64,000 nucleotides of DNA from an uncultured Alphaproteobacteria bacterium (GTDB taxonomy: Bacteria; Pseudomonadota; Alphaproteobacteria; HIMB59). The notes beneath the pieces were generated by a model. It was given only the letters and a program-made list of their open reading frames with translations. It was not told where the DNA came from and ran no database searches. This document shows, in pieces, positions 11,274 to 36,652 of this stretch (the stretch's first letter is position 1; the number at the start of each line of letters is the position of its first letter). The translations under genes and the position numbers were made by a program. The stretch is taken from positions 35,026 to 99,025 of the forward strand of contig CAYRCI010000001.1 of the NCBI GenBank assembly GCA_964422765.1. Direction: 5' to 3'.

Positions 11274-11274
11274 T

Positions 11275-11351: not shown

Positions 11352-11442
11352 TAAGTTAATATATATAATTCAATAAGTTTTTATTATTAGCAGAATACTT
11401 ATTAATAAGATAAAATTTATTAAAAAATCTTAGGAGGAAACT

Positions 11443-12396: not shown

Positions 12397-12412
12397 TTAA
12401 GACTATAAAGTT

Positions 12413-12446
12413 AACTACTGGGTGCTTACTGCCCAGTAGTTTATTT
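12413..12446 (+). terminator. Intra-operon hairpin / attenuating terminator after the binding-protein gene
   Basis: A 10-bp perfect stem AACTACTGGG / CCCAGTAGTT with a 9-nt loop, followed by a T/A-rich tract. It starts 17 nt after the stop codon. Confidence 0.5.
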
Positions 12447-12473
12447 AAATCAAAAATAATTAAAAAAATAAAT

Positions 12474-13232: not shown

Positions 13233-13249
13233 ATGAGAAAGGTAAAAAA

Positions 13250-22073: not shown

Positions 22074-22148
22074 GTCTCCTTCGTCTAGCGGTTAGGACAT
22101 CACCCTTTCACGGTGAAGACACGGGTTCGATTCCCGTAGGAGATGCCA
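22074..22148 (+). tRNA. tRNA-Glu (anticodon TTC), CCA encoded
   Basis: Acceptor GTCTCCT/AGGAGAT; anticodon stem TCACC/GGTGA with loop CTTTCAC; T-arm ACGGGTTCGATTCCCGT; 3' GCCA. Confidence 0.9.
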
Positions 22149-22164
22149 AACAAGGTTGAGTTAT

Positions 22165-22249: not shown

Positions 22250-23410
22250 ATGCCAGGTAAAATTTCACTTTTCGTCCCCGGACCTACTAACATGCCAGAT
22301 CGAGTAAGGCAGGCAATGGATATTTCCAACGAGGACCACAGAGCTCCTGGATTAGATAAATTTTGGCATCCTCTAGTGGATGATTTAAAAAAAGTTTTTG
22401 AAACAAAAAATGGACAACCCTTTATTTTCCCTGGAACTGGGACAAGTGGTTGGGAAGCAGCTTTAACAAACTTATTGAATAAAGGTGATAAAGTTTTATC
22501 AGCCCGTTTTGGACAATTTTCACACCTCTGGATTGAGATGTGTAAAAAACTTCATATCGATGTAGAAGTTGTAGATGCAGAGTGGGGAGAAGGTACTCCA
22601 AATAATGAATTTGAAAAAATCTTATCAGCCGATAGTAAGCATCAAATCAAGGCTGTATTAGTTACACATAATGAAACTTCCACTGGTGTTACAAATGATG
22701 TTCAAGCTACTCGTGATTTATTAAATAAATTAAATCATCCTGCATTACTCTTTGTTGATGGAGTAAGTTCAATTGGTTCCATTAAATTTGAAATGGATCA
22801 TTGGGGTGTAGATGTAGCAGTATCAGGTTCTCAAAAAGGATTTATGTTACCAGCGGGCTTGGCAATTAGCTGTGTAAGTGAAAAAGCATTAGAAATAGCA
22901 AAATCTTCAAATCTTCCTAGAGCTTACTTTGATTATTTAGATATGCTCAAAATGAACAATACTGGCTATTGGCCCTACACTAATCCTATGCCACTACTTC
23001 GGGGATTAAGAGAGTCCTTAAACATGATGTTAGAGGAGGGATTAAATAATGTTTATGCAAGACACCATTTTTTAGCAGGCGCAGTACAGAAAGCTGCTCA
23101 TGCATGGGGTTTAAATCTTTGCGCCAAAGATCCATCTTTATATTCTAACACTGTGACGGCGATCATGGTACCAGAGGGGATAGACTCAACAAACATCGTT
23201 AAAGTTGCTTACAGCAAATACAACACCTCTTTTGGAGGGGGTCTAAATAAAGTAGCAGGAAAGCTTTTTAGAATTGGCCATTTAGGGGATTTAAATTCTA
23301 CAATGATTTTAGGGGCAATCTCAACTGCTGAATTATCAATGTACGATGTAGGAATTAAATTTGAATTGGGAAGTGGCGTTGCAGCTGCTATAAAACACTT
23401 AAAGGTATAA
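22250..23410 (+). CDS. Class V aminotransferase, serine--glyoxylate / alanine--glyoxylate / serine--pyruvate aminotransferase type
   Basis: About 386 aa with an AGXT-family pattern: PGPTNMPDRV, THNETSTGV, and the PLP lysine in SGSQKGFMLPAGL. Confidence 0.85.
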   Translation: MPGKISLFVPGPTNMPDRVRQAMDISNEDHRAPGLDKFWHPLVDDLKKVFETKNGQPFIFPGTGTSGWEAALTNLLNKGDKVLSARFGQFSHLWIEMCKKLHIDVEVVDAEWGEGTPNNEFEKILSADSKHQIKAVLVTHNETSTGVTNDVQATRDLLNKLNHPALLFVDGVSSIGSIKFEMDHWGVDVAVSGSQKGFMLPAGLAISCVSEKALEIAKSSNLPRAYFDYLDMLKMNNTGYWPYTNPMPLLRGLRESLNMMLEEGLNNVYARHHFLAGAVQKAAHAWGLNLCAKDPSLYSNTVTAIMVPEGIDSTNIVKVAYSKYNTSFGGGLNKVAGKLFRIGHLGDLNSTMILGAISTAELSMYDVGIKFELGSGVAAAIKHLKV

Positions 23411-23412
23411 AT

Positions 23413-24390
23413 ATGAAAATTTGCATTTATGGAGCAGGGGCAATTGGTGGATATCTTGGAGCTAAACTTGCTGAAATTGGTGCAGATGTCACCTTGATCG
23501 CTAGAGGCCCTCACTACAATGCTATTAAAACTGATGGGTTGCGTTTAAGAAAAGATGGTAAAGAACTAGTTGTTTATCCTAAATGCGTAGATACTGCTGA
23601 AAAAGCAGGCAAACAAGATTTTATTTTTGTAACTTTAAAAGCTCACTCTGTTCCAGGCTGCTTAGATGCATTTGAGGTTTTAATGAAAGATGATACTTCC
23701 TTTGTTTGGGGAGTGAACGGCATACCTTGGTGGTATTTTTATAACCACGAGAATCCGGATTTTAAAAATAAAAGAGTTAATTCTGTTGACCCAGATAATA
23801 GCCAATGGGATAGAATTGGTCCTGAAAAAATTATCGGATGCATCGTTAATCCAGCCTCTGAAGTAATTAAACCCGGCGTTATCCAACACCTCGAAGGAGA
23901 TAAATTTCAGCTGGGTGAAATTAACGGTGAAGACACCGATAGAACTAAAAATTTATCTGAGATTTTAGAAAAAGCGGGTTTTCAAGCTCCTATTCGCCCT
24001 AATATTAAAGGAGATATTTGGTTAAAACTTTTTGGAAACTTATCCTTTAACCCTATTAGTGCTTTAACCACATCTACTCTCGTTAAGATTTGTAGTGATA
24101 CTGAAGTAAGAAATGTTGTAAGAAATATGATGAACGAAGCTCACGCAATCGCTCAAAGTTTAGGAATTGATAAACCTTTTGATGTGGAAAGAAGAATTGA
24201 TGCCGCTAAAGCAGTGGGAGAGCACAAAACATCTATGTTACAAGATTTAGAAAGAGATCGTCCGATGGAAATTGATGCGTTAGTCGCTTCAGTGCAGGAA
24301 CTAGGAAAAATTTCTAAAGTCCCTACACCGACCATTGACACTGTGCTTGCTCTTACTAAACTTCGTGCAAGAGAGGCACAGCTTTATTAA
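23413..24390 (+). CDS. 2-dehydropantoate 2-reductase family (ApbA/PanE) oxidoreductase
   Basis: N-terminal Rossmann MKICIYGAGAIGGYLGAKLA and the C-terminal ApbA_C pattern (HKTSMLQDLERDRPMEIDAL). The physiological substrate is not deducible from sequence. Confidence 0.75.
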   Translation: MKICIYGAGAIGGYLGAKLAEIGADVTLIARGPHYNAIKTDGLRLRKDGKELVVYPKCVDTAEKAGKQDFIFVTLKAHSVPGCLDAFEVLMKDDTSFVWGVNGIPWWYFYNHENPDFKNKRVNSVDPDNSQWDRIGPEKIIGCIVNPASEVIKPGVIQHLEGDKFQLGEINGEDTDRTKNLSEILEKAGFQAPIRPNIKGDIWLKLFGNLSFNPISALTTSTLVKICSDTEVRNVVRNMMNEAHAIAQSLGIDKPFDVERRIDAAKAVGEHKTSMLQDLERDRPMEIDALVASVQELGKISKVPTPTIDTVLALTKLRAREAQLY

Positions 24391-24392
24391 TT

Positions 24393-25265
24393 TTAGTTTA
24401 AGGCCTTTTTAATAGTTTCACCTAATTTTGCTGGTGACTTGGAGATATGAACGCCTGCATCTTCTAAAGCATTAAACTTAGACTCCGCAGTACCCTTTCC
24501 TCCAGAAATAATAGCTCCTGCATGACCCATTCTTTTACCCGCAGGTGCGCTTGCTCCTGCAATAAAAGAGGCAACCGGTTTTTTAATAGAAGAATTCTTG
24601 ATAAATTCAGCTGCTTCTTCCTCCGCTGTACCACCGATTTCTCCAATCATAATAATACCTTCTGTTTCCGGATCTTTTAAAAACAAGTCTAGACAGTCGA
24701 TAAAATTAGTACCATTGATAGGATCACCGCCAATACCAATACAAGTGGTTTGACCTAACCCCACTGCTGACGTTTGAGCAACTGCTTCATATGTCAATGT
24801 ACCGGAACGACTAACAACGCCAATTTTACCTTTTTGATGAATATGACCTGGCATAATACCAATTTTACATTCACCTGGAGTGATAATACCGGGGCAGTTC
24901 GGTCCAATGAGTCGAGATTTAGATCCTACTAACTTTTTCTTTACTTGAAGCATGTCTAAAACTGGCACACCTTCAGTAATACAAACGATCAATTCCATTT
25001 CAGCTTCGATTGCCTCTAAAATAGCTCCTGCTGCAAATGGAGGCGGAACATAGATCACGGTTGCATTTGCTTGTGTATTTTCTTTAGCATCCTTTACAGT
25101 GTTAAAGACAGGTAAACCTAAATGCTCTTGGCCGCCTTTTTTAGGGGTAACACCACCAACCATTTGTGTTCCATATTTAATAGCTTGTTCAGAGTGGAAT
25201 GTTCCTTGCGCACCAGTGAAACCCTGACAAATTACTTTAGTTTTTTTATTAATTAATACTGACAT
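24393..25265 (-). CDS. sucD: Succinyl-CoA synthetase alpha subunit
   Basis: [33 protein letters not shown] and the phosphohistidine loop MGHAGAII. Confidence 0.97.
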
Positions 25266-25275
25266 GAGTTTCTCC

Positions 25276-26463
25276 TTATTTTAAAGCCCCGACAGCTTTT
25301 TGAGCTGCGTCTTCTAAATTATCTGCAGAGATAATAGCAAGACCTGATTTGTTTAAGATTTCTTTTCCAAGTTCAACATTGGTTCCCTCTAATCGAACAA
25401 TCAAAGGAACCTGAATGGAAAGTTCTTTTGCTGCAGCAACAACACCTTCAGCGATGATATCACATTTCATAATACCGCCAAAAATGTTTACTAAGATTGC
25501 CTTCACATTTGGATCTTGAAGAATAATGGAGAAGGCTTTCGCTACTCTTTCTTTTGTAGCACCGCCTCCTACATCTAAAAAGTTTGCAGGACTGCCGCCG
25601 TGCAACTTAATGATGTCCATAGTTCCCATTGCAAGACCAGCACCGTTCACCATACATCCAATGCTTCCATCTAATTTCACATAATTTAATTCATGTTTGG
25701 AAGCTTCAATCTCAGCTGGATCTTCCTCAGTTTCATCTCTCATTTCAGCAATCTCTTTGTGTTTGTAAAGAGCATTATCATCGATGGAGATTTTTGCATC
25801 CAGCGCTAAGAAATTTCCCTCACCAGTTAAAACAAATGGATTTACCTCCACTAATGATGCATCAGAAGATAAAAAACTTGTATAAATTTTTTGGATTTGA
25901 TCCGCAAAGTCAGCAGCTTGATTACTTGGGATTTTAAGACCTTCAACTAATTTTGATAAACTAGCTTGATTGATAACGGGATCGCCTGAAACGCTTACAG
26001 TAATAATTTTTTCAGGTTCTCTTTCTGCTACTTCTTCAATTTCCATTCCACCTTCTGTAGATGCAATAATTGAAATTGAAGATGTGGCTCGGTCCACAAG
26101 CATGCTTAAGTAGTATTCTTTTTTGATATCACAACCTTCTTCGATATACAGACGGTTGACTACTTTTCCAACAGGTCCAGTTTGCTTTGTAACTAGAGTT
26201 TTACCTAGCATTTTACGAGCATTATCTCTAGCTTCATCTTTCGAGAAACAAACGCGAACACCGCCTTTATCATCTCCGCTATCTTTGAATTTCCCAGCAC
26301 CTCTGCCACCTGCGTGAATTTGAGATTTTACAACCATCACGGGGGTTGTGATAGAATCAACGGCACTATCAATTTCATTGTCGTTTAAGACTGGCACTCC
26401 AGCTAAAACTCTTACATCGTTTTTTTTTAGCAAGGTTTTTGCCTGATATTCATGTAAGTTCAT
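25276..26463 (-). CDS. sucC: Succinyl-CoA synthetase beta subunit
   Basis: [12 protein letters not shown], the ATP-grasp domain, [14 protein letters not shown] and [10 protein letters not shown]. Confidence 0.97.
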
Positions 26464-27434
26464 TGTTGTCCTCCTTTGACTTCCAATAAAATTTTTCCAA
26501 TATGTTCTGATTTTTCCATCATCGCGTGTGCTGCAGTGACGTCTTCCAGTTTAAACGTTTGGAATATAGTTGGTTTATATTTACCCTGTTCAATCAAAGG
26601 CCATATTTCTTTTACGACTTGATCGACAATTCTGCCTTTTTCCTCGGGTGATCTTGATCTAAGTGTAGATCCAGAAACTTTTAATTGTTTATTCATTACA
26701 TGAAGAAGATTTACTTCACCTTTAATACCTCCTAGTGCAGCTATATAAGTAAGCCTTCCAAATTTGTTAAGGATTTTTAAATTCTTTTTAACATAATCAC
26801 CCCCAACCATATCTAGGATAATGTCCACTTTTATTTTTTTTTCTTCAAAATATTGTTCAAAGTCAACTTCTTTGTAGTTGAGGGCAACCTTAGCTCCTAA
26901 ATCCATGCAGCGCTGACACTTATCTGCACTTCCTGCAGTTACATATATATTGGGAGTATAATTTTTGAGAATTGAAATGGCGGTTGTCCCTATGCCGCTA
27001 CTTCCACCATGGATAAGAACTGTTTCGTTTTTTTGAAAATTTGAAATATTAAAAATATTTTCATACACTGTTAAAATAGTTTCTGGTAGGGCTCCTGCTT
27101 CAGCTAAACTCACACCTGTGGGTACAGACATGACTTGCCGTACATCGACATTTACAAATTCTGCATAACCACCCCCACCAAGAATGGCACAGACCTGATC
27201 TCCTTCTTTGAATTTTTTAACATTACCCCCAATTTTCCTGACAATACCAGCACACTCTAGACCTATTATATCACTTTCACCAGGAGGGGCAGGGTAGTGG
27301 CCTTTTTTTTGTAAAATATCTGCTCTGTTAACGCTTGTAGATGTAATTTCAATTTGTAGTTGATTCGAGTTAGGGTCTTCGATATCTCGCTGATCGAGAT
27401 ATAGCTTTCCATCATTGCAATTTATGAATTTCAA
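26460..27434 (-). CDS. NAD(P)H:quinone oxidoreductase, zinc-independent MDR family (PIG3/Qor-like)
   Basis: [19 protein letters not shown] and [12 protein letters not shown] motifs. ATGA-type overlap with sucC. TTG start. Confidence 0.85.
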
Positions 27435-27450
27435 TTTCTAACCTTGTATA

Positions 27451-27467
27451 TTGTATACATTATACCA
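27451..27467. promoter_or_regulatory. Candidate GntR operator TTGTATACATTATACCA (16/17 match to the site at 31409)
   Basis: Near-palindrome in the 188-nt divergent region between the qor-sucCD unit and tctC. It is preceded by an extra half-site (CTTGTATA). It is identical, except at position 2, to the perfect palindrome upstream of the decarboxylase gene. Confidence 0.45.
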
Positions 27468-27622
27468 AGTAACAAGACAATAAGATTAGAATTAGCCTTG
27501 AAAAATATGATAAAATTTTAAATTTCAACAAAAAAAATTTATTTTTTTTATAATTTCTCTTTTGAAAAAAATATAAATAGGTTAATCTAAAAACATATTC
27601 AAACTATAGGAGGAATATTACT

Positions 27623-28600
27623 ATGACTTTAATTAAAAAAATCGCGTTAGTCATTGTTTCTCTATCCTTAGTAGCTGTTAGCTCCATTTCTTCGGCAAAG
27701 CCTTTTGAGCCAAAGAAGCCTATTGAGCTTATTATTCCAGCTGGTCAAGGTGGAGGAGCTGACGAAATCGCAAGATTAGTTCAAGGTGTTATCGAAAAGA
27801 ATGATTATGCATCTAAGCCTGTGATTCCAATCAACAAAGCTGGTGGTTCAGGTGGTGAGGCAATGACATACGTTAAGAAAAAAGCTGGTGATGAGCACAC
27901 ACTTATCATTACACTTAACAACGTTCTTACAACTCCTGTTAACCAGCCAGAATTAGGTATTGATTTCTTCAATGATTTCACACCATTGGCTAGACTTATT
28001 ACAGATACATTCCTAGTATGGATTGCTACAGAAGGTAAAAACACTGCTGGTGTAAATACTTTTGATGATTTTCTAGCATTAGCAAAACAGGGCAACCTTG
28101 TTGCTGGTGGTACAGGTAGCATGTCAGAAGACGAATTACTTATCGGTATGATGAGAGGTATGTTCGGTTTTGATGTGAAGTATGTTCCATACAGTGGCGG
28201 TGGAGCAGTTGCTAAAGGTTTAGTAGGCGGCGAGTCTGACTTTACTGTTAACAACCCTTCAGAGCAAATGGGCTTCTATCAATCAGGTGACTCTAAGGCA
28301 CTTGTGATGATGACTCCTGAAAGAAACTCAGCTTTCCCAGATGTTCCTTCTTCTTATGAATTAGGATATCCAGAACTCGAGTACTACATGATGAGAGCTT
28401 TTATGGCTCCTGCAGGTATCGATGCGGAAGTTGAAAAGTATTACACAGGACTTTTACACACTACTTACTGGGATGATGAATTTCAAACATTCAACATCGA
28501 TGATGGTAAGTTAATGAGTTGGTTAGAAGGTTATGGTCTTAAAGATTTCTTAGCAGTTGAATATGCTAAGCATGGTGAGATCATTAAAAATTTCAACTAA
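27623..28600 (+). CDS. tctC: Tripartite tricarboxylate transporter substrate-binding protein (TctC/Bug family)
   Basis: Signal peptide. About 325 aa. Bug-family pattern (KPIELIIPAGQGGGADEIARL...NKAGGSGGEA). Followed by TctB and TctA. Strong RBS (taggagg). Confidence 0.85.
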   Translation: MTLIKKIALVIVSLSLVAVSSISSAKPFEPKKPIELIIPAGQGGGADEIARLVQGVIEKNDYASKPVIPINKAGGSGGEAMTYVKKKAGDEHTLIITLNNVLTTPVNQPELGIDFFNDFTPLARLITDTFLVWIATEGKNTAGVNTFDDFLALAKQGNLVAGGTGSMSEDELLIGMMRGMFGFDVKYVPYSGGGAVAKGLVGGESDFTVNNPSEQMGFYQSGDSKALVMMTPERNSAFPDVPSSYELGYPELEYYMMRAFMAPAGIDAEVEKYYTGLLHTTYWDDEFQTFNIDDGKLMSWLEGYGLKDFLAVEYAKHGEIIKNFN

Positions 28601-28624
28601 TATACAATATTATAGGAGCGACTT

Positions 28625-29146
28625 ATGAGCATAACAAATAAACTAACAGTAAAAAGAGCAGAGATAATAGTTGCTGTTTTCTTAGCATTATGCTCAGCCG
28701 CTCTTATGTATAAAAGTGCCCAAAATAGAATTACTTGGAATACAGAAGATAACATGGGAGCAGGGTTTTTACCTTTCTACCTCTCCTTAGGGATGTTAAT
28801 TTGTACAGTATTAACAATTATTAAATTTATTTTAAAAAAATCTCCTCAATCTAAGGATGACAGTCCATTTATTGATGCAGAGGCTTTTAAATATGTATTT
28901 GTTACAGCTGGGTCTTTGATTGTATTAGTATTCGCTATTGGATTTTTAGGAATTTATTTTTCTTTAGTTTTCTTTTTGGCATTTTATCTACGATATTTTA
29001 GTGATAAGAGTAAATTATTCATTTCTATTTTCTCTATTATCACGCCAGTTTTGACTTTCTTGTTTTTTGAATGGCTTTTGAAAATTCCTTTACCGCAAGG
29101 TGTTTCAGAACCATTATTTTATCCAGTTTACGATTTTATGTATTAA
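28625..29146 (+). CDS. tctB: Tripartite tricarboxylate transporter small membrane subunit (TctB-like)
   Basis: A 173-aa four-TM protein located between tctC and tctA. The call is positional plus topology. Confidence 0.7.
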   Translation: MSITNKLTVKRAEIIVAVFLALCSAALMYKSAQNRITWNTEDNMGAGFLPFYLSLGMLICTVLTIIKFILKKSPQSKDDSPFIDAEAFKYVFVTAGSLIVLVFAIGFLGIYFSLVFFLAFYLRYFSDKSKLFISIFSIITPVLTFLFFEWLLKIPLPQGVSEPLFYPVYDFMY

Positions 29147-29167
29147 GGCTTAAGAGGAGATTTAACA

Positions 29168-30691
29168 ATGGAAATGGATGTTTTTCACTTATTATTAGAC
29201 GGAATATTTACTGCTTTTCAACCTCTTAACTTAGGGCTTTTAATATTTGGTTGTTTGGTCGGTTTATTTGTAGGCGCAATGCCTGGCCTAGGATCAGTTA
29301 ACGGTGTTGCAATTTTAATTCCGATTACTTTTATTGTACCACCTACTGCGGCTATTATTTTCCTAGCTGCTGTTTATTATGGCGCTATGTATGGCGGCGC
29401 TATCAGCTCCGTTATGTTAGGTATACCCGGCGCATCTACTGCTGTCGCCACGGTTTTTGATGGTAGACCTCTTGCTGTAAAAGGTGAGGCTATGACAGCG
29501 TTGACTGCTGCTGCTGTGGGTTCTTTTGTCGGCGGTACTGTATCTGTTGTTTTATTTACTCTATTTGCCCCTCCACTTGCTGAAGTGGCATTGCGTTTTA
29601 ATGCGCCCGAGACTTTCGCATTGATGGTGATGGCATTCGCAACCTTTGTAGGTTTAGGGGGCGATGATATCCCAAAAACTATTTTTTCTATCTTGATTGG
29701 TCTTGTTTTATCTACTATTGGATTAGATTTAATCACTGGAAAGCCTCGATTAATTTTCTTTGGTTTGCCAGGTTTCTTGCACGGGATTAATTTCTTGGTA
29801 TTGGCTATTGGTATCTATGGTATCGGAGAAATGCTTTGGACTTTAGAAGAAACCAAGGGAAAAGTTCAAATGTCTAAACTGTCTGTCAACATGGCAGAAA
29901 TGTTTAAAGCACTTAGAGCCTTAAAGAAAACTTTCATGGCTATGAACATTGGTTCTTTTTTAGGATTTTTTGTCGGTATTTTACCTGCTGCGGGTGCCAC
30001 TCCAGCATCCTTAATGGCGTATGGTATTACAAAACAATTATCTAAAAATTCTAAGGATTTTGGCCAAGGTGTTCCTGCGGGTGTTGTTGCGCCAGAATGT
30101 GCAAATAACTCCGCTAGTACTGGAAGTATGTTGCCTATGCTTACCCTTGGTATTCCTGGTTCTCCAACGACTGCTATCCTTTTAGGGGGAATGATCCTGT
30201 GGGGATTAACTCCAGGACCATTACTTTTCACCCAAGAACCAGAATTTGTTTGGGGTCTTATTGGCAGTTTATACATTGCTAATTTCTTTACTCTTATTTT
30301 AAATATTGCGCTTATTCCTGCTTTCTTGATGGTATTGAGAATACCTTTTGCAATTTTAGCTCCAGTAATTTTTGTACTTTGTGTGACAGGGGGCTATGCA
30401 CCAACCCAAAGTATTCATGATGTCTGGTTAATGCTTTTATTTGGTTTCTTTGGTTACATCTTAAGAAAACTTGATTATCCAGTTGCTCCAGCTGTTTTAT
30501 CAATCGTTTTAGGACCACTTGCGGAAAATGCTTTAAGGCAATCTCTAATTCTTTCAGATGGCAGTATGGGAATATTTTTCGACTTCTCATTAAAACCCAT
30601 TGCTGCTGTTATCATGTATATTGCTATTGTATTGATATTAATGCCGGCTTTTGGACCAATTTATAGAAAGTTTTTTAAGAAAACTTCCTAA
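29168..30691 (+). CDS. tctA: Tripartite tricarboxylate transporter large permease (TctA)
   Basis: A 507-aa polytopic protein with TctA-family motifs (GAMPGLGSVNGVAILIPITF, YGGAISSVMLGIPG, LPAAGATPASLMAYG). Confidence 0.9.
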   Translation: MEMDVFHLLLDGIFTAFQPLNLGLLIFGCLVGLFVGAMPGLGSVNGVAILIPITFIVPPTAAIIFLAAVYYGAMYGGAISSVMLGIPGASTAVATVFDGRPLAVKGEAMTALTAAAVGSFVGGTVSVVLFTLFAPPLAEVALRFNAPETFALMVMAFATFVGLGGDDIPKTIFSILIGLVLSTIGLDLITGKPRLIFFGLPGFLHGINFLVLAIGIYGIGEMLWTLEETKGKVQMSKLSVNMAEMFKALRALKKTFMAMNIGSFLGFFVGILPAAGATPASLMAYGITKQLSKNSKDFGQGVPAGVVAPECANNSASTGSMLPMLTLGIPGSPTTAILLGGMILWGLTPGPLLFTQEPEFVWGLIGSLYIANFFTLILNIALIPAFLMVLRIPFAILAPVIFVLCVTGGYAPTQSIHDVWLMLLFGFFGYILRKLDYPVAPAVLSIVLGPLAENALRQSLILSDGSMGIFFDFSLKPIAAVIMYIAIVLILMPAFGPIYRKFFKKTS

Positions 30692-30719
30692 TCAAAAATT
30701 AATGATGGGGTCGATATAA

Positions 30720-31379
30720 ATGATCTTAAAAATCGGCCCTGTAAATCTCAAAAGTAAAGTTTACGACACTCTTAAGAAATATATTTTATCTTTAAATATT
30801 TATCTTAAAGAAAATGATTTTCATCTTGATGAAAGACAGCTATCTGAAAAGTTAGGTGTTAGTAGAACTCCAATACGTGAGGCTATTGCAAGATTAGAAC
30901 AAGAAGGAATTGTTAAAACAGTTCCAAGAAGAGGCGTATTTGTTCACCGAAAAACAAAAAAAGAATTAATTGATATAGTAACTGTATGGGCAGGGCTTGA
31001 AGGGTATGCAGCACATTTGGTTATTGAACATTCTTCCAAAGAAGAAATTGAAGAATTAAATAAATTCTGTCACTACACTAAAAGTAATGTTTTATCTGAT
31101 CTGGAAAACTACTCTGCAGATAATATTAAATTTCATCAACAAATAATGAAATTAACAAAAGTAAAACTGATGGGTGAAATTTTAGAATCCCAACTCATAC
31201 ACCTTCAATTTTTAAGAAAAAAATTCATTTTTTTCTCTGAAAGAGCGGTCCAATCAATTGATGAACATACTGAAATTATAGCCGCACTATCTTCTGGCAA
31301 AGCATCAAGAGCTGAAAAACTCCTTAAAAATCACGCTTTAACCCTTGTGGATAGAATACACGAGAACATCAAAAACTAA
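30720..31379 (+). CDS. GntR-family transcriptional regulator (FadR/FCD subfamily)
   Basis: N-terminal winged HTH (LDERQLSEKLGVSRTPIREAIARLEQEGIV) and an all-helical C-terminal FCD-type domain (...HTEIIAAL..G....AEKLLKNH). Confidence 0.87.
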   Translation: MILKIGPVNLKSKVYDTLKKYILSLNIYLKENDFHLDERQLSEKLGVSRTPIREAIARLEQEGIVKTVPRRGVFVHRKTKKELIDIVTVWAGLEGYAAHLVIEHSSKEEIEELNKFCHYTKSNVLSDLENYSADNIKFHQQIMKLTKVKLMGEILESQLIHLQFLRKKFIFFSERAVQSIDEHTEIIAALSSGKASRAEKLLKNHALTLVDRIHENIKN

Positions 31380-31408
31380 CCCGAAAATCTTTGCATCGTA
31401 TTTTATTC

Positions 31409-31425
31409 TGGTATACATTATACCA
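31409..31425. promoter_or_regulatory. Candidate GntR operator: perfect 17-bp palindrome TGGTATA-CAT-TATACCA
   Basis: Read directly from the sequence. It lies about 30 nt after the GntR stop and ends 17 nt before the ATG at 31443, just upstream of the RBS ggagagg. It contains the GT..AC core typical of GntR operators. A second copy sits at 27451. Confidence 0.55.
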
Positions 31426-31442
31426 CCACGGAGAGGTAAATT

Positions 31443-33119
31443 ATGACTACAGGATCAAATGAACAAATGATTACTGGCGGTGAGCTAGTAGCAAAAGCTC
31501 TCAAAGCAGAGGGTATTGAAGTTATTTATACACTATGTGGCGGCCATATTATTGATATTTACAACGGCTGCTTAAATGAAGGAATTAAAATTATAGACGT
31601 GCGCCATGAAGAAGTAGCATCACATGCTGCAGATGGTTATGCACGTATGACAGGTAAACCTGGGTGTGCAGTTGTTACTGCAGGACCAGGAACAACACAT
31701 GCCATTACAGGTGTTGCAAATGCATTTAGAGCTGAAATCCCAATGCTTTTAATTGGTGGTCAGAGTTCATTAACACAACATAAAATGGGTTCTTTACAAG
31801 ACTTACCACACGTTGACATGATGCAACCAATAACAAAATTCGCCGCAACAGTAATGTCAACGGAGCGTTGTGCTGATATGGTTTCAATGGCTTTTAGAGA
31901 AACAAGAAATGGTTCTTATGGCCCATCTTTCCTAGAAATTCCTAGAGATATTTTAGACTCATCAATTCCATTAAGTAAAGCTGTGATCCCAGCTGCAGGA
32001 AAATACAGTGCCTCTTCTAAAACTCTCGCTGATCCAGTGGATGTTCAAAAAGCTGCTGACATTATTTCTAAGTCTGAAAGACCTTGTGTTCTATTAGGTC
32101 AACAGGTTTGGACATGCCAGTCAACAAATGAAGCAGTTGAGTTTGTAAGAAATCTTAATATCCCTGCTTATTTAAATGGAGCTGCTCGTGGCTCACTTGC
32201 ACCAGGAGATCCTCATCATTTTCATAGAACGAGAAGAAATGCATTCACTAAGTCAGACTGCATTATAATTGTTGGTACTCCATTTGACTTCAGAATGGGT
32301 TATGGAAAAAGATTAAACCCAAATGCAACTGTTATCCAAATCGATATGGACTACAGAACAGTTGGAAAAAATAGAGATATTTCTCTAGGTTTAGTCGGTC
32401 ATATTGGAACTACATTAAAAGCAATTTCTGAAGCTGGTACCAAAAAAGATAGATCAGATTGGTTTAACGAATTAAGAGCGGGCGAAGAGTCAGCTCTGGA
32501 AAAGCTTATGCCAACCTTTACTACTGACAAATCTCCAATTAGCCCTTACAGAGTTGCATGGGAGTTAAATCAGTTTTTAAATGATGACACAATTTATATT
32601 GGTGATGGTGGTGACGTAGTTACGATCAGTGCACAGGCAGTTCAACCTAGACAACCTGGTGCTTGGATGGATCCAGGTCCTCTAGGAACACTTGGTGTGG
32701 GTGTACCCTATGCTTTAGCTGCAAAAATTGCTGCTCCTGAGAGAGAAGTTCTTCTCTATTGTGGTGATGGTGCGTTTTCAATGACAGGTATGGACTTTGA
32801 AGCTTTTGTCAGACACAAAGCTCCTGTTTTAACGGTCATTGGTAATAACTCAGCTCAAAACCAAATCCGTTTTGGTCAGATTATGAAATACGGTGAAGAA
32901 AAAGGTAATATCGGAAACATCCTTGGCGATGTGAACTTTGATGAGTTTGCAAAAGTATTGGGTGGTCACGGTGAGAGCGTTCGCGAAGCAAAGGACATTC
33001 AACCTGCACTTCAAAGAGCAAGAGAAGCGGTTAAAGCTGGAACTCCTGCATTGGTTAATATTTGGGTAGACAAAGAAGAGTTTGCACCAGGTACTAAAAA
33101 CCAAACTATGTATAAATAA
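31443..33119 (+). CDS. Thiamine-diphosphate-dependent decarboxylase of the ALS/POX/Oxc superfamily; putative oxalyl-CoA decarboxylase by context
   Basis: Three-domain ThDP enzyme with the GDG...NN ThDP motif (YCGDGAFSMTGMDFEAFVRHKAPVLTVIGNNS). It lies 22 nt upstream of a clear frc. The N-terminus looks more ALS-like than canonical Oxc, so the substrate call is contextual. The superfamily call alone would be about 0.9. Confidence 0.6.
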   Translation: MTTGSNEQMITGGELVAKALKAEGIEVIYTLCGGHIIDIYNGCLNEGIKIIDVRHEEVASHAADGYARMTGKPGCAVVTAGPGTTHAITGVANAFRAEIPMLLIGGQSSLTQHKMGSLQDLPHVDMMQPITKFAATVMSTERCADMVSMAFRETRNGSYGPSFLEIPRDILDSSIPLSKAVIPAAGKYSASSKTLADPVDVQKAADIISKSERPCVLLGQQVWTCQSTNEAVEFVRNLNIPAYLNGAARGSLAPGDPHHFHRTRRNAFTKSDCIIIVGTPFDFRMGYGKRLNPNATVIQIDMDYRTVGKNRDISLGLVGHIGTTLKAISEAGTKKDRSDWFNELRAGEESALEKLMPTFTTDKSPISPYRVAWELNQFLNDDTIYIGDGGDVVTISAQAVQPRQPGAWMDPGPLGTLGVGVPYALAAKIAAPEREVLLYCGDGAFSMTGMDFEAFVRHKAPVLTVIGNNSAQNQIRFGQIMKYGEEKGNIGNILGDVNFDEFAKVLGGHGESVREAKDIQPALQRAREAVKAGTPALVNIWVDKEEFAPGTKNQTMYK

Positions 33120-33141
33120 TCTAGGAAAGGTTTAAATATAT

Positions 33142-34389
33142 ATGGAAGCTCTTAAAGGAATAAAAGTATTGGACATGACGCATGTTCAATCAGGACCGAC
33201 ATGTACTCAGCTTTTAGCTTGGTTTGGAGCTGATGTTGTTAAAGTTGAAAGACCAGGAGTAGGTGATGCTACTCGTGCTCAGCTAAGGGATATCCCTGAT
33301 GCTGACAGTCTTTACTTTACAATGTTAAATTCAAACAAAAGAAGTATTACTCTTAATCCTAAAAATCCTGAGGGAGCAAAAATATTTACTAAATTAATTC
33401 AAGAATGTGATGTCATGGTTGAAAACTTTGCTCCTGGCGCATTAGATCGTATGGGTTTCTCTTGGGAAAAAATCCAAGAAATTAATCCTCGAATGATTTA
33501 TGCATCAGTCAAGGGATTTGGACCAGGTAAATATGAAGAATGTAAAGTATATGAGAACGTCGCCCAGTGTGCTGGTGGTTCAGCATCTACCACGGGTATG
33601 CTTGGAGATATTCCTATGGTCACCGGCGCTCAAATTGGCGATAGCGGAACCGGCCTTCATTTAGCTTTAGGTATTGTGACCGCACTATTTCATAGAGAAA
33701 AATCCGGCAAAGGACAAAGAGTATCTGCAGCAATGCAAGATGGCGTTTTAAATCTTTGTAGAGTAAAACTAAGAGACCAGCAGAGACTTGCTCACGGTCC
33801 TTTAAAGGAGTACTCACAGTTTGGTGAAAACATTCCTTTTGGAGACTCAACACCAAGAGCTGGAAACGACTCAGGTGGCGGTCAGCCTGGAAAAATTCTT
33901 AAATGTAAAGGTTGGGAGACTGATCCTAATGCTTATACTTATTTTATTACTCAAGCGGCAGTTTGGGAAAAAGTATGCGATGTAATTGGTAAGCCAGAGT
34001 GGAAAGAAGATGAAAATTATGCAACTCCAAATGCTAGACTTCCCAGATTGAACGAGATCTTCAGTACTATTGAACAGTGGACTATGACTAAAACAAAATT
34101 CGAAGTTATGGATATTTGTAACCCTCTAGACATTCCAGTCGGGCCAATTCTATCATTAAAAGAAATCGCAGAAGATGAGGGATTAAGGCAAACAGGAACT
34201 ATTGTTGAAGTAGATCATCCTGTTAGAGGGAAGTATTTAACAGTGGGCAATCCAATAAAATTATCCGATTCTCCTGCAGTAGTAAAAAGATCACCCTTAT
34301 TAGGAGAACATACTGATGAAATCCTAAAAGAGTTTTGTAATTATAATGATGACGAAATTAAAGCCGTCAAAGAAGCGGGTGCTGTATAA
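33142..34389 (+). CDS. frc: Formyl-CoA:oxalate CoA-transferase (class III CoA-transferase)
   Basis: Extended matches to Frc as I recall it: [112 protein letters not shown]. Confidence 0.93.
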
Positions 34390-34414
34390 GCGCCAATTAT
34401 TTTAAGGAGATACA

Positions 34415-35335
34415 ATGAAAATAATTTTAATGGGACAACAAGCTTTTGGAAAAAGCACATTAGAAAAATTCCACACAGGTACAGACCATGAAGTTGTAGC
34501 TGTATACTGTGCCCCTGATAAAGAAGGCAAACCAGTTGATCCAGTCAAAGAATATGCTCAAAGCGTAGGACTTCCAGTATATCAACCTTCCAATTTCAAA
34601 GATAAAGAAGTTTTAGATCAAATAAGATCTCATGATGCCGATTTATGTGTAATGGCTTATGTAATTATTTTTGTTCCAGAAGAGGCAAGAGATATTCCAA
34701 AGCATGGATCTATTTGCTTTCACCCTTCTTTACTCCCCTTACACAGAGGACCAAGCTCTATTAACTGGCCAATTATTTGGGGATCAACTAAAACTGGTCT
34801 TACAATTTTCTACCCTAACGATGGATTAGATGAAGGGGAAGTATTGCTTCAAAAAGAAGTAGAAATTGGACCTGATGAAACTTTAGGCGATGTTTATTTC
34901 AATAAAATCTTCCCTCTTGGTGTGGATGCTTGTATTGAAGCTGCCGATCTAATTGCAGCTGGAAATGCACCTCGAGTTGCTCAAGACGAGTCTAAAGCAA
35001 CTTACGAGTCATGGTGTAAAAAAGCAGATGCTAAAATTGATTGGAAAAAGCCAGGAAAAGAAGTTTATAACCTGATCAGAGGCTGTAACCCACAACCAGG
35101 CGCATGGGCAGAGTTTTTAGGCGATGAATTCGTATTTTTAGACACAAAATTTGTTGAAGAACAAAGTGCAGAACATTTTCCTGGACAGATCATCTCAATT
35201 AACGCTGAGAACGTAAGAATAGCGGTAAAAGGTGGATTTATTGAGGTTTCTCGTTTTAAAACAAAAGACCAAGGTAAAACCTGGGTAAAAGATATGAATA
35301 CAGCAGTTATTACAGAGGGGGACTTATTTAGTTAA
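34415..35335 (+). CDS. Formyltransferase-fold protein, a stand-alone homologue of the N-terminal (hydrolase) domain of 10-formyltetrahydrofolate dehydrogenase / Fmt family
   Basis: MKIILMGQQAFG..., the catalytic-site pattern HGSICFHPSLLPLHRGPSSINWPIIWG, the Asp in NDGLDEGEVLLQKE, and an Fmt-type C-terminal subdomain (IDWKKPGKEVYNLIRGCNPQPGAWAEF). There is no ALDH domain. Confidence 0.8.
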   Translation: MKIILMGQQAFGKSTLEKFHTGTDHEVVAVYCAPDKEGKPVDPVKEYAQSVGLPVYQPSNFKDKEVLDQIRSHDADLCVMAYVIIFVPEEARDIPKHGSICFHPSLLPLHRGPSSINWPIIWGSTKTGLTIFYPNDGLDEGEVLLQKEVEIGPDETLGDVYFNKIFPLGVDACIEAADLIAAGNAPRVAQDESKATYESWCKKADAKIDWKKPGKEVYNLIRGCNPQPGAWAEFLGDEFVFLDTKFVEEQSAEHFPGQIISINAENVRIAVKGGFIEVSRFKTKDQGKTWVKDMNTAVITEGDLFS

Positions 35336-35341
35336 AATATT

Positions 35342-36652
35342 ATGGCAGCAGAATTATCAGTTGATTTAACGACTACTACAGTTGGAATTTTAAGTTTAGT
35401 CACATTTGTAGTTGCATATGGATTTGTGATGGCAGAAGAGGTTACTCATCTTAGAAAGTCAAAACCAGTTATATTATCTGCTGGAATTATATGGGCACTT
35501 ATTGCCTCTGTTTATATCGGCGATAAAGAAATGGCACATGCTGTTGAACAAGCACTTCGCCATGGAATTTTAGAATACGCTGAGCTATTTTTATTTCTCT
35601 TAGTCGCAATGACTTATATAAATGCCTTAGACAATAGGGATGTTTTCAATGCCCTTCGATCTTATTTGACAAGTAAAGGTTTTAGTTACAAACAGTTATT
35701 TTGGATAACGGGTGTAATAGCATTTTTTTTATCACCAATCGCAGATAATCTTACAACAGCACTAGTGCTTTGTGCTGTTTTATTGGCAGTCGGTAAAGAT
35801 AATAAAAAATTCATTTTAATTGGTTGTATTAATATTGTCAGTGCAGCTAATGCAGGTGGGGCCTTTTCACCTTTTGGCGATATCACAACTTTGATGGTTT
35901 GGCAAAAAGGCCATTTAACCTTTTTTGAGTTTTTTGCAATTTTCATTCCATCGGTAGTTAATTACATTATACCAGCTGTGATTATGAGTTTTGCTGTACC
36001 AAATGAAAAACCTAAATCGTCAGGGGAGTTAATAACAATGAAAAGAGGAGCTAAGCGCGTAATGGTTTTATTCTTATGCACTATTGTTACCGCTGTTAGT
36101 TTCCACAACTTTTTAACTTTACCTCCAATGATGGGTATGATGCTGGGATTTGGATATCTCTCACTATTAGGTTTTTATTTAAAGAAAACTCACGGCAGTC
36201 ATAAAAACGATGGAGATTTGAAATTTGATATATTGAGAAAAGTATCTAAAGCTGAGTGGGACACCTTACTATTCTTCTTTGGCGTTATCCTTAGTGTTGG
36301 TGGACTAGGTTTTATTGGGTATCTGACTCAAATTAATGTTTTTATGTATGGCGAATTAGGTGCTACTTGGGCTAACGTTATGGTTGGAATACTATCTGCC
36401 ATAGTTGATAATATTCCAGTAATGTTTGCAGTTCTTACAATGAACCCTCCGATGGGTCCTGAACAATGGGAGTTAATTACTTTAACCGCAGGTGTTGGTG
36501 GAAGTATGTTATCTATTGGTTCTGCTGCAGGTGTTGCGCTTATGGGGCAGGCAAGAGGTATGTACACATTCTTTGGCCATTTGAAGTGGACACCCGTGCT
36601 TGCACTGGGTTATGCAGCAAGTATTTATGCTCAAATTTTAATTAATTTTTAA
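35342..36652 (+). CDS. nhaD: Na+/H+ antiporter, NhaD/ArsB-superfamily
   Basis: A 436-aa polytopic protein with FLSPIADNLTTALV and AANAGGAFSPFGDITTLMVW motifs, as in NhaD. It starts 6 nt after the formyltransferase gene. Confidence 0.72.
   Translation: MAAELSVDLTTTTVGILSLVTFVVAYGFVMAEEVTHLRKSKPVILSAGIIWALIASVYIGDKEMAHAVEQALRHGILEYAELFLFLLVAMTYINALDNRDVFNALRSYLTSKGFSYKQLFWITGVIAFFLSPIADNLTTALVLCAVLLAVGKDNKKFILIGCINIVSAANAGGAFSPFGDITTLMVWQKGHLTFFEFFAIFIPSVVNYIIPAVIMSFAVPNEKPKSSGELITMKRGAKRVMVLFLCTIVTAVSFHNFLTLPPMMGMMLGFGYLSLLGFYLKKTHGSHKNDGDLKFDILRKVSKAEWDTLLFFFGVILSVGGLGFIGYLTQINVFMYGELGATWANVMVGILSAIVDNIPVMFAVLTMNPPMGPEQWELITLTAGVGGSMLSIGSAAGVALMGQARGMYTFFGHLKWTPVLALGYAASIYAQILINF

Follow-up and report, generated by a model that had tools for sequence, protein, structure and literature searches.

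A conserved 17-bp palindrome as the probable operator of a GntR/FCD regulator at an oxalate-related locus of an AEGEAN-169/HIMB59-type alphaproteobacterium

Operators of the FadR subfamily of GntR regulators (FadR, PdhR, LldR, UxuR/ExuR, and DgoR-type proteins) share the consensus TNGT-N-ACNA, as reportedly set out by Rigali et al. 2002 and in subsequent studies. Atu1419 from Agrobacterium fabrum (GntR superfamily, FCD subfamily, VanR group; PDB 6Z74) is a Zn-containing FCD repressor that binds ATGTATACAT, in which G3 is essential, and one of its sites is located between the -35 and -10 elements of its own promoter, while its effector is the C1-folate N5,N10-methylene-THF, with Zn in the FCD pocket (PMC7797058). 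NanR, the GntR/FCD sialic-acid repressor of Escherichia coli, reads repeats of a GGTATA half-site, requires at least two closely spaced repeats for high affinity, and possesses a metal-containing FCD domain, with release of the DNA being caused by its effector (PMC8012715). As for the oxc/frc genes, pH-dependent induction is documented in lactobacilli and bifidobacteria. EvgA controls yfdXWUVE in E. coli. A 2024 review describes no dedicated repressor or operator of the oxalate pathway and calls its regulation understudied (PMC13409138), and GntR is not mentioned in the top-ranked literature on oxalotrophy or oxalate catabolism. The 17-mer reported here, which was not found in the literature searched, is very probably the switch-off point for oxalate-breakdown genes, the same genes being guarded in many unrelated bacteria; the switch is of an ordinary kind but apparently undescribed.

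The window, i.e., the whole 64-kb stretch of DNA that was analysed, stems from an AEGEAN-169/HIMB59-type alphaproteobacterium. Its minus strand carries sucD, sucC, and qor (PIG3 family), with a 4-nt overlap between qor and sucC; qor starts with TTG at 27434, and relatives have ATG at the homologous place. The plus strand encodes tctC, tctB, tctA, a GntR+FCD regulator, a ThDP enzyme, frc, an fmt-like formyltransferase, and nhaD. The frc assignment is at true equivalog level, scoring 705 bits where the cut-off is 504, and nhaD matches its profile with 567 bits, while the intergenic gaps in ThDP-frc-fmt-nhaD amount to 6-25 nt and the next gene is convergent (Table 1). These assignments agree with the earlier gene calls, and the combination of frc with a ThDP decarboxylase or lyase is shared with the known cases of oxc/frc regulation.

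Table 1. Coordinates of genes, sites, and predicted promoter elements in the window
Feature	Position	Strand	Remark
qor-sucC-sucD operon	24393..27434	-	PIG3-type quinone oxidoreductase and ADP-forming succinate-CoA ligase; putative O1 target
Direct half-site TTGTATA	27444..27450	.	abuts O1; kept in part of the clade only
Operator O1 (putative) TTGTATACATTATACCA	27451..27467	.	minus strand reads TGGTATAATGTATACAA; conserved in the clade
Conserved box ATAAATAGGTTAA	27572..27585	+	near tctC; candidate part of a proximal tctC promoter not overlapped by the operator
tctC-tctB-tctA, tripartite tricarboxylate-type transporter	27623..30691	+	target in relatives; uncertain here
GntR/FCD regulator, 219 aa	30720..31379	+	putative binder of O1 and O2
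-35-like hexamer TTGCAT	31391..31396	+	12 nt upstream of O2; predicted, in conserved block CTTTGCAA
Operator O2 (putative) TGGTATACATTATACCA	31409..31425	.	7-bp inverted arms, CAT centre; precedes ThDP-frc-fmt-nhaD
-10-like hexamer TACATT	31414..31419	+	centre of O2, 17 nt after TTGCAT; read from sequence
Shine-Dalgarno GGAGAGG of ThDP gene	31430..31436	+	conserved GGAGA/AGAGA block
ThDP enzyme (HACL/OXC family)-frc-fmt-like formyltransferase-nhaD	31443..36652	+	putative O2 target

The perfect inverted repeat TGGTATA-CAT-TATACCA (O2) begins 29 nt past the GntR stop and ends 17 nt ahead of the ATG of the ThDP gene. A copy identical at 16 of 17 positions (O1) is separated from the start of qor by 16 nt and from the downstream ATG of tctC by 155 nt; O1 on its qor side and O2 on its ThDP side share the same geometry. 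An extra half-site, CTTGTATA (27443-27450), extends the upstream site to TTGTATA|TTGTATA|CAT|TATACCA. All three elements had been described in the original prediction and are confirmed. Searching the window for TKGTATACATTATACCA with up to 3 mismatches returned five matches against 0.57 expected, a number reached by none of 100 shuffles: the two sites, two self-overlaps, and one 3-mismatch match within the nhaD coding sequence (35958). No third copy with 2 or fewer mismatches is present anywhere in the 64 kb, which bears out the earlier count by eye. We propose, on the strength of sequence comparisons, that O1 and O2 are probably operators of the GntR/FCD repressor encoded between them, each situated in a core promoter.

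The regulator contains PF00392 (53 bits) and PF07729 (60 bits) domains, and the Asn and three His residues of the FCD metal site are conserved. Atu1419 (6Z74) is among its best solved-structure matches (54 bits), with which it shares the wHTH + FCD architecture and an SRTPxREA recognition helix, whereas the overall similarity is low; the NCBIfam NanR-family match to the FCD domain is weak (62.6 bits versus a cut-off of 260). The sites can be compared in the same manner. The GTATAC core is common to the Atu1419 operator and the 17-mer, but the former is a 10-bp palindrome, while the latter combines arms of 7 bp with an asymmetric centre that is conserved. Its outer TGGT...ACCA arms correspond to classic FadR-subfamily half-sites, yet GT and AC are separated by 9 bp rather than 2-5 bp, and the centre C-A-W is conserved though asymmetric, unlike in FadR-subfamily sites. 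The 17-mer exceeds the 10-bp palindromes of characterised FCD relatives by 7 bp and so may be bound either by a single dimer at its outer arms or by two dimers on overlapping 10-mers. Regarding function, Atu1419 forms a tetramer, looping the DNA between sites at distances of 109-190 bp, and targets hydroxycinnamate degradation genes, unlike the regulon considered here, to which that of NanR is likewise unrelated.

About 50 species-level HIMB59-type relatives have both sites in the same places, which answers the question of conservation upstream of orthologous operons in the affirmative. O2 is present in all 51 clade sequences covering the position (47 with a CAT centre, 4 with CAA), with a major-allele frequency of 0.99 over the 17-mer versus 0.81 in the flanks, and is retained in L040-L043 despite unalignable flanks. 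O1 occurs in 48 of 48 sequences covering it (0.95 conserved versus about 0.6 in the flanks); its core GTATACAWTATAC is invariant and only outer bases vary (TTG/TGG/ATG and CCA/CAA). The neighbouring half-site is kept in the window, L001, and L043, reads GGTATTT in the single-cell-genome group, and is absent from L002, L038, and L040. Across 612 kb of clade loci, a single extra match with 2 or fewer mismatches was detected, which places the motif above background. The frequency of the sites far exceeds chance expectation; they do not vary across the clade, and they accompany the regulator and the same gene families into distant bacteria.

Outside the clade, three loci with 64-68% GC (L061, L063, and L065; regulator 45-48% identical) keep tctCBA-gntR-ThDP-frc, and in them gntR and tctC are preceded by TGGTATACATTATACCA, TGGTATACAATATACC, or a shortened version, TGGTATACCA. 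This shortened version, present in L065 and L066, is a typical 10-bp operator of the FadR subfamily. A metagenome scan for the exact 17-mer returned at least 119 loci, in which gene starts of ten families next to the motif were counted, with one locus able to give two. Families named in advance from the window account for at least 33 starts (gntR 16, tctC 6, sucC 4, qor 4, and window-type ThDP 3), and the others among the matches listed are fhs 12, CBS 16, pntA 4, fdsB-like 3, and MFS 2. Among the matches listed, the site lies at most 400 nt upstream of one of these families in 66 of 119 loci, a figure that is partly circular, as the non-window families were defined after seeing the data, and in 43 of 48 loci with a GC fraction of at least 0.55. 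About half of the matches listed lack a regulon gene in their vicinity and resemble chance; most of these are on contigs of low or medium GC. Given that the 17-mer is expected about once per 10^11 bp at 65% GC, recurrence of so AT-rich a sequence beside orthologues of the regulator and of the operons in bacteria with 64-68% GC is very unlikely to be fortuitous. In L101, downstream of the site come gntR, a canonical oxc (995 bits), frc (703 bits), and fmt, a gene order that appears to tie it to oxalate. The predicted control of the ThDP-decarboxylase operon by the GntR protein via the 17-mer is therefore supported by both conservation and recurrence, while the regulon, suspected to be small, seems wider than the window, with formate-THF ligase, formate dehydrogenase, pntA, and CBS-domain genes bearing the same site elsewhere.

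The same data bear on whether a real operator might be bound by another protein, such as a different GntR-family or global regulator, with the adjacent GntR being a passenger. The identical 17-mer precedes genes adjoining distantly related GntR proteins (L071 and L075, 23-25% identity; Bacillaceae-like L096, L121, and L159, 30-35%), so the motif is not exclusive to this orthologue group, and no regulator gene is visible on the contigs of the fhs, pntA, and CBS loci. However, an orthologous regulator gene adjoins the site in every clade genome and in L061, L063, and L065, and the regulator occupies the usual autoregulatory position at 16 of 119 random motif matches among those listed. Moreover, the motif core agrees with that of the characterised FCD relative Atu1419, and conservation of the motif is paralleled by that of the recognition helix, whose region is 74-87% identical to GC-rich orthologues versus 33-40% in the FCD domain. 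We thus regard the passenger scenario as quite unlikely and infer that the adjacent regulator binds the sites.

In the mechanism we propose, the effector-free regulator would bind TGGTATA-CAW-TATACCA and block RNA polymerase because the occupied site falls within the core promoter. The centre of O2 would double as the -10 of the ThDP-frc-fmt-nhaD promoter, with the -35 element 12 nt upstream. The latter reads TTGCAA in most relatives and the -10-like hexamer reads TACAAT in L040-L043; the predicted pair fits 8 of 12 consensus positions, below the promoter-scan threshold, and hence was not called. A -10 within O2 would explain the invariance of its non-palindromic C-A-W centre. Read on its minus strand, O1 contains TGnTATAAT (27467 to 27459), a perfect extended -10 directed towards qor that would serve qor-sucCD 16 nt before the start codon. 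Comparable layouts recur at the promoters of gntR in GC-rich relatives (TTGCxx and, after about 12 nt, the operator, as at O2), CBS promoters in metagenome loci (TTGACA, 2 nt, operator), and tctC promoters in relatives (TTTACA-17-TATAGA, 8 nt, operator). The effector is expected to be a small acid or a CoA or folate intermediate of oxalate and formate metabolism, whose binding to the metal-containing FCD domain would release the DNA. Gating of qor-sucCD, initially only suggested, can be upgraded to a well-supported target in view of the O2-like geometry and of operators located, in metagenome loci, 25-40 nt before qor in L150, L169, L177, and L156 and ahead of sucC in L104, L118, L122, and L158, including the order operator-qor-sucCD-gntR-frc in L177 and sites before sucCD in L118 and L158.

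Since one strand or the other of the motif contains TGGTATAAT or TATATT/TACAAT, and -10-like strings abound in AT-rich genomes, the palindrome might be a mere shared promoter element, an extended -10 on both strands, lacking a dedicated regulator. This is very improbable: the symmetric outer arms TGG...CCA are unneeded by a bare -10, yet invariant at O2 and in GC-rich genomes; the motif at CBS promoters lies in the spacer after a consensus TTGACA and not at the -10; and it is confined to one functional gene set, co-occurring with one regulator family. Action as RNA, be it a terminator or attenuator hairpin after gntR or a 5' leader structure, is hardly credible and effectively refuted. O2 does lie just past gntR, where RNA depth falls, but the hairpin is weak (O2 -7.0 kcal/mol, z = -0.3; O1 z = -1.5 and -0.3), no better than shuffled sequence; at the site there is no U-tract after the O2 hairpin, no terminator was called, and no Rfam match was obtained. 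Relatives, in addition, place the same motif upstream of genes, gntR itself included.

An operator function of O1 and O2 leaves the sign of regulation to be considered, as the regulator could bind the site and act as an activator or dual regulator rather than a simple repressor. FadR at fabA exemplifies such action. The apparent proximal tctC promoter lies about 90-150 nt downstream of O1, a spacing that would allow activation or looping, and tctC expression in situ is extremely high. In contrast, at many independent promoters the site falls on the -35/-10 spacer, on the -10 itself, or on the start region, which is a repression geometry, and the characterised FCD relatives with similar sites (Atu1419 and NanR) are repressors; activation or dual control is accordingly unlikely, and we infer repression.

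Metatranscriptome contigs add to this picture. The tctC RNA contig begins at 27617, close to the ATG and not at the operator, and no RNA contigs cover 27436-27605 in the window's population, though tctC depth reaches 300-2300. Control of tctCBA, perhaps with autoregulation by read-through, had also been predicted; it is clear in relatives, where the operator lies directly upstream of tctC (L106, L118, L123, L176, and L178), but uncertain here given the RNA start near the ATG. The regulator gene itself is transcribed with tctCBA, and one RNA contig (28525-31004) joins tctB-tctA-gntR. RNA depth is down to 0-3 across 31167-31393 and picks up again at the ThDP gene, a dip between gntR and the ThDP gene that is consistent with a separate promoter at O2. 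A low-depth RNA contig (31235-31452, depth 4.3) spans O2, indicating that read-through from gntR, or DNA carry-over, exists.

The original prediction had placed a perfect inverted repeat, here called O2, ahead of the ThDP enzyme gene (HACL/OXC family) and a second copy with an extra half-site, here called O1, between qor and tctC; both were borne out by the sequence at the positions claimed, together with the gene content proposed for the two strands. The 17-mer consists of 7-bp inverted arms around a CAW centre, where W is T or A. A search of the 64-kb window at ≤3 mismatches returned only O1 and O2, self-overlaps and one 3-mismatch match in coding sequence, in keeping with the claimed absence of a third copy. 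At this threshold the chance expectation for the degenerate 17-mer in the window is 0.57, and O1 and O2 are both intergenic.

Positions of the operator candidates and of neighbouring features in the window
Feature	Position	Strand	Remarks
tRNA-like sequence	about 22075-22150		ahead of the following palindrome
Perfect palindrome TTTCACA-T-TGTGAAA	22169-22183		upstream of the BhcA-like and PanE/ApbA genes
BhcA-like aspartate-glyoxylate aminotransferase	22250-23410		near sucD; 579 bits vs cut-off 650
PanE/ApbA reductase	23413-24390		adjoins sucD
sucD		minus	
sucC		minus	
PIG3-type qor	TTG start 27434	minus	
Additional TTGTATA half-site	27444-27450		abuts O1
O1, TTGTATACATTATACCA	27451-27467		between qor start and tctC ATG
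Conserved box, TAAATAGGTTAA	27572-27585		~40 nt ahead of tctC
tctC	27623-28600	plus	ATG at 27623
tctB, tctA		plus	
GntR+FCD regulator (gntR)	30720-31379	plus	219 aa
O2, TGGTATA-CAT-TATACCA	31409-31425		29 nt past GntR stop, 17 nt ahead of ThDP ATG
Extended -10 in O2, TGGTATAAT	31417-31425	minus	directed into gntR 3' end
ThDP enzyme	ATG 31443	plus	
frc		plus	
Fmt-like formyltransferase	34415-35335	plus	
nhaD	35342-36652	plus	

Relatives of the regulator assign the window to the marine alphaproteobacterial group AEGEAN-169/HIMB59. For this clade, one genome per species was scanned, giving 51 loci with regulators 75-96% identical to that of the window, and the motif was present at both syntenic positions in all covering loci, while it was absent from 9/9 loci having only distant GntR relatives (26-36% identity). 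In alignments built from the non-redundant intergenic regions, the core GTATACAWTATAC is invariant at O1 and O2, and at the site ahead of the ThDP gene all 17 positions are fixed but the central W. The major-allele frequency is 0.99 at O2 and 0.95 at O1, compared with 0.81 and about 0.6, respectively, in the 30-nt flanks on each side. The flanks of four divergent genomes (L040-L043) cannot be aligned, yet TGGTATACAATATACCA is kept in 4/4, and three of them (L040-L042) have a 13-nt insertion ahead of the ribosome-binding site. Beyond the two sites, ≤2-mismatch matches amount to 1 in 612 kb of clade DNA. Besides, a near-copy with 2-3 mismatches, TGGTATTAAGGATACCA, was observed within the tctA coding sequence (at ~5633) of a single-cell-genome subclade (L004-L051); it is absent from the window and is probably a coding coincidence.

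Regulators 45-48% identical to that of the window were found on three contigs of 64-68% GC (L061, L063 and L065), which have the cassette tctC-tctB-tctA-gntR-ThDP-frc in common; in L065 it extends at 10798-13502 into a formyltransferase and then a formate-THF ligase. The AT-rich motif is found again in their intergenic regions: L061 carries CTGGTATACATTATACCAAC ahead of gntR and TTTGGTATACGGTATACA ahead of tctC, L063 carries GTGGTATACAATATACCG ahead of gntR, and L065 carries a short perfect palindrome, TGGTATACCA, ahead of both genes. The site is thus differently placed, namely upstream of gntR in these relatives and between gntR and the ThDP gene in the window's clade, and the former position would render gntR-ThDP-frc autoregulated. 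The short form was rejected as a genome-wide probe at ≤1 mismatch, its background in AT-rich DNA being 1.5 per 64 kb, and is informative only as perfect copies in the GC-rich L065 and L066.

A metagenome collection was furthermore scanned for exact TGGTATACAWTATACCA, which returned at least 119 loci. The genes nearest the motif on either side were called, with a GC3-filtered caller in the GC-rich loci, after which the products were clustered and the clusters named. The motif lies ≤400 nt upstream of one of ten families in 66/119 of the loci listed, a total that is partly circular as five of the families were set post hoc, and upstream of such families in 43/48 of the loci listed at GC ≥0.55. 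Counted as gene starts beside the motif, so that a locus with a family on both sides counts twice, the five families predefined from the window make up 33 gene starts among the matches listed: gntR homologues 40-53% identical (16), tctC (6), sucC (4), qor (4) and the window-type ThDP gene (3). The post hoc families, again among the matches listed, are a CBS-domain protein of about 145 aa (16), formate-THF ligase (fhs; 12), pntA (4), an FdsB-like formate dehydrogenase subunit (3) and an MFS transporter divergent from gntR (2; L115 and L131). As fhs, formate dehydrogenase, pntA and CBS-domain genes bear the same site elsewhere, the regulon would extend past the window. The loci listed that have no family gene are mostly low- or mid-GC contigs; composition arithmetic gives tens to a hundred chance matches per 10^11 bp at low or mid GC versus about one at 65% GC. 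A long-open-frame test of coding versus intergenic motif position proved invalid, since spurious long frames are common in GC-rich DNA.

In AT-rich alphaproteobacterial contigs (L085, L093, L111, L175, L185, L186 and others, including the 1.41-Mb contig of GCA_035070865.1), the exact 17-mer lies 27-30 nt ahead of the fhs start. These loci probably belong to the window's clade, as judged from the NCBI label Alphaproteobacteria bacterium, a GC content of about 0.32, the 1.41-Mb contig and accession prefixes resembling those of regulator-bearing single-cell genomes; the reads placed on L085 at 80% likeness are a mixture of many organisms, and a look-up of one regulator protein (P0037) did not bring up the 1.41-Mb genome. 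The AT-rich contig L090 (2960-3070) contains three tandem units of ~26 nt (CATCATGGTATAATGTATACCAAATT) with the motif in each, the middle one having 1 mismatch.

The same 17-mer also occurs beside distantly related GntR genes, Bacillaceae-like contigs included, and one might suspect that another protein binds it in the window; however, the motif is strictly linked with the orthologue group of the window regulator, which makes this unlikely for the window. In three Bacillaceae-like contigs (L096, L121 and L159), the identical 17-mer was noted 30-45 nt ahead of a 2Fe-2S ferredoxin gene, and since the nearby GntR protein is only 30-35% identical, the motif is common to more than one GntR lineage. 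The claimed operator role for the adjacent GntR regulator is supported by the clade footprint, the GC-rich relatives and the metagenome co-occurrence, and we consider it highly probable that O1 and O2 are operators at which this regulator acts as a repressor.

The window regulator has a GntR-type wHTH (PF00392, 53 bits vs cut-off 27, residues 11-75) followed by an FCD domain (PF07729, 60.2 bits vs cut-off 24.3, residues 85-205). Its HTH region, LDERxLSExLGVSRTPIREAxxRLEQEG, is 74-87% identical to most GC-rich orthologues and 61% identical in the two least similar, and the FCD domain is 33-40% identical to those of the motif-sharing orthologues. The window protein and every close orthologue share the FCD pocket motifs N-x-x-F-H, (D/E)H and (N/E)H, which also align with the PDB relatives; the Asn and three His residues of the predicted metal site are retained. 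Among the PDB matches is the VanR-group protein Atu1419 (PDB 6Z74), a Zn-containing FCD repressor that binds ATGTATACAT, where the G of GTATAC is essential, that has one site between the -35 and -10 of its own promoter, and whose effector is N5,N10-methylene-THF (PMC7797058). The 17-mer can be read as 7-bp inverted arms flanking a 3-bp centre, or else, by analogy, as two overlapping Atu1419-type 10-mers shifted by 7 bp, TGGTATACAT and the reverse complement of CATTATACCA; the two-10-mer reading fits the short form of L065 and the GGTATAC-GGTATAC form of L061. NanR, which reads GGTATA repeats, requires at least two close copies in direct orientation with 2-3 nt spacers and has an N-terminal extension of ~32 residues for cooperativity (PMC8012715). 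In contrast, the arms of O2 are inverted, O1 comprises two direct TTGTATA units and one inverted unit, and the wHTH of the window regulator begins at residue 11/219 with no such extension.

At O2, a conserved -35-like hexamer is predicted, TTGCAT (TTGCAA in relatives), which ends 12 nt short of the operator, and the centre TACATT constitutes a putative -10 with a 17-nt spacer from it. Such a double use of the centre would account for the conserved asymmetric C-A-W. The predicted ThDP leader is about 15-20 nt long and holds GGAGAGG, and the layout of TTGCxx, ~12 nt and operator is also seen in gntR promoters of GC-rich bacteria, the hexamers again being predicted. Although the palindrome could on these grounds be taken for a bare promoter element only, this is very improbable, as it leaves unexplained why the outer arms are symmetric and why the motif is confined to one gene set. 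An RNA hairpin or terminator was rejected as well: the folds are weak and no better than those of shuffled sequence, a U-tract is lacking and no terminator-like site was found, no Rfam family matches apart from an irrelevant SmY hit (E = 0.057), and the occurrence of the motif upstream of genes in relatives argues against it. In relatives, predicted hexamers place the operator of CBS promoters in the spacer that follows a consensus TTGACA, that of gntR promoters over the -10 and that of tctC promoters at about +8. Since all of these are repressor geometries, we favour effector-relieved repression by promoter occlusion, in which the operator-bound regulator would occlude the promoter until an effector relieves repression; the regulon points to oxalate, oxalyl-CoA or formyl-CoA, formate and C1-folate as candidate effectors.

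Logan contigs of metatranscriptomes served as the RNA source, providing relative depth and gaps at a resolution too coarse for 5' ends. In four metatranscriptomes the RNA depth is 0-3 across 31167-31393 and resumes in the ThDP gene, and one low-depth RNA contig spans O2. The RNA contigs are strandless; the perfect extended -10 on the minus strand of O2 could give rise to an antisense transcript.

The minus-strand reading of O1, TGGTATAATGTATACAA, gives a perfect extended -10 (TGnTATAAT), and O1 ends 16 nt ahead of the qor start, a spacing almost as at O2; relatives have ATG at the homologous position, which supports the start codon call. In metagenome loci, the operator lies 25-40 nt ahead of qor in L150, L169, L177 and L156, and 20-150 nt upstream of sucC in L104, L118, L122 and L158 (tblastn), while L177 has the order operator-qor-sucC-sucD-gntR-frc. 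This geometry and these relatives make qor-sucCD a well-supported candidate target of O1, firmer than the original suggestion that the site may also gate it.

For tctC, L123, L176 and L178 have a good promoter, TTTACA-17-TATAGA, immediately ahead of the operator and then a 90-230 nt leader to the gene, and in L065 TTGACA-18-TACTGT and then the short site precede it; judging from these arrangements, tctC is a direct target in the four loci. The distance from O1 to tctC in the window, 155 nt, is similar to that in relatives. No convincing plus-strand promoter was found at O1, and no RNA contigs from near-identical populations run across 27436-27605, a stretch that DNA-type runs do cover, while tctC itself has a depth of 300-2300. 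Because this gap adjoins such deep tctC, most tctC RNA seems to start close to the gene, near the conserved box, as far as the coarse contig evidence goes; a processed tctC leader is conceivable. The proposed control of TctCBA is thus clear in relatives and uncertain in the window. One RNA contig joins tctB-tctA-gntR (28525-31004) and the gap ahead of gntR is 28 nt, indicating a common transcript for gntR and the transporter genes.

The RNA of tctC far exceeds every other RNA of the region in metatranscriptome contigs of estuarine, freshwater and salt-marsh origin, its depth being 300-2300 compared with 34-79 for tctBA, 10-200 for ThDP/frc and 2-8 for qor, and the steep fall after tctC suggests attenuation or processing at 28600-28625. 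The box ahead of tctC is conserved across the clade and recurs ~15-25 nt upstream of the operator in the AT-rich fhs loci L175 and L185; two possible roles are a promoter element common to these genes and a binding site for a second regulator.

The frc product is a genuine formyl-CoA transferase (TIGR03253, 705 bits vs cut-off 504). The ThDP enzyme, unlike the decarboxylase of a canonical oxc-frc operon, scores below the cut-off of the Oxc equivalog TIGR03254 (238.8 vs 739.4 bits); its best models are PRK05858 (481.6 vs 587) and 2-hydroxyacyl-CoA lyase (353 vs 600), and among PDB entries it matches the actinobacterial HACL 7PT1-7PT3 best (261 bits), with E. coli Oxc scoring lower (186). In GC-rich relatives, the slot behind the operator is occupied either by the window type, 65-66% identical (L133, L137 and L178), or by canonical Oxc in L101, where gntR, oxalyl-CoA decarboxylase (995 bits), frc (703 bits) and fmt form the operon behind the site. 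The latter ties the regulon to oxalate breakdown, and the shared slot behind the same operator makes a role of the ThDP enzyme equivalent to that of Oxc plausible. The window has the TctCBA system instead of an OxlT-type MFS oxalate antiporter. Disposal of formate or formyl groups would fit the association with fhs, formate dehydrogenase and the Fmt-like gene. Oxalobacter Frc can use succinate or succinyl-CoA, which would give sucCD a priming role.

The Fmt-like formyltransferase, which has both N- and C-terminal domains, always follows frc, and this order together with the formate-THF ligase of L065 raised the idea of a formyl transfer linking the CoA and folate pools. In some clade members, such as L190 (8130-11179), a multi-subunit Mrp/Pha cation-proton antiporter stands behind the fmt-like gene in the slot of nhaD; a sodium or proton antiporter seems to be the constant final member of the operon.

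Tentatively, we speculate that one deeply conserved GntR/FCD regulator with a 17-bp promoter-embedded operator, from 30% GC marine AEGEAN-169/HIMB59 to 68% GC soil Proteobacteria, might coordinate the uptake and CoA-dependent decarboxylation of oxalate (or a related C2 acid) with formate-to-folate (fhs, fmt-like, formate dehydrogenase), NADPH (pntA, qor) and succinyl-CoA (sucCD) metabolism; by analogy with Atu1419, an intermediate of the pathway, for example oxalyl-CoA, formyl-CoA or formyl-/methylene-folate, may act as the effector. If so, the top abundance of tctC RNA in estuarine and coastal samples would suggest that an abundant bacterioplankton group has oxalate-type acids as a major substrate that has been overlooked. 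The substrates of AEGEAN-169/HIMB59 are poorly known, and the regulator-operator pair connects a binding protein expressed at very high levels with a defined catabolic module. It would also serve as a sequence tag for pathway genes that homology alone would miss, such as sucCD, qor, the CBS-domain protein, the TTT transporter (tctCBA), the fmt-like formyltransferase and the HACL-like ThDP enzyme replacing canonical Oxc. How the oxalate marker genes oxc and frc are regulated is understudied according to a 2024 review (PMC13409138), and the regulator-operator pair offers an experimental handle on this question. The 17-mer was not found in the literature searched, and the papers examined on GntR and oxalate genes, while matching the search, describe no such regulator. 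The mechanism itself is ordinary, as GntR/FCD repressors that act on a palindromic operator next to their own operon are a thoroughly known kind of system; the pair here seems to be a member of this kind that has not been described before and that is conserved unusually widely.

Near the minus-strand genes of the regulon, a BhcA-like aminotransferase gene and a PanE/ApbA reductase gene lie close to sucD. In Methylorubrum, the oxalyl-CoA reductase belongs to the PanE family, and by this analogy the reductase beside sucD is a lead towards a possible oxalyl-CoA reductase link. A separate perfect palindrome, preceded by a tRNA-like sequence, is located upstream of these two genes, and similar TTTCA...TGAAA palindromes were observed between the operator and tctC in L002, L028 and L043.
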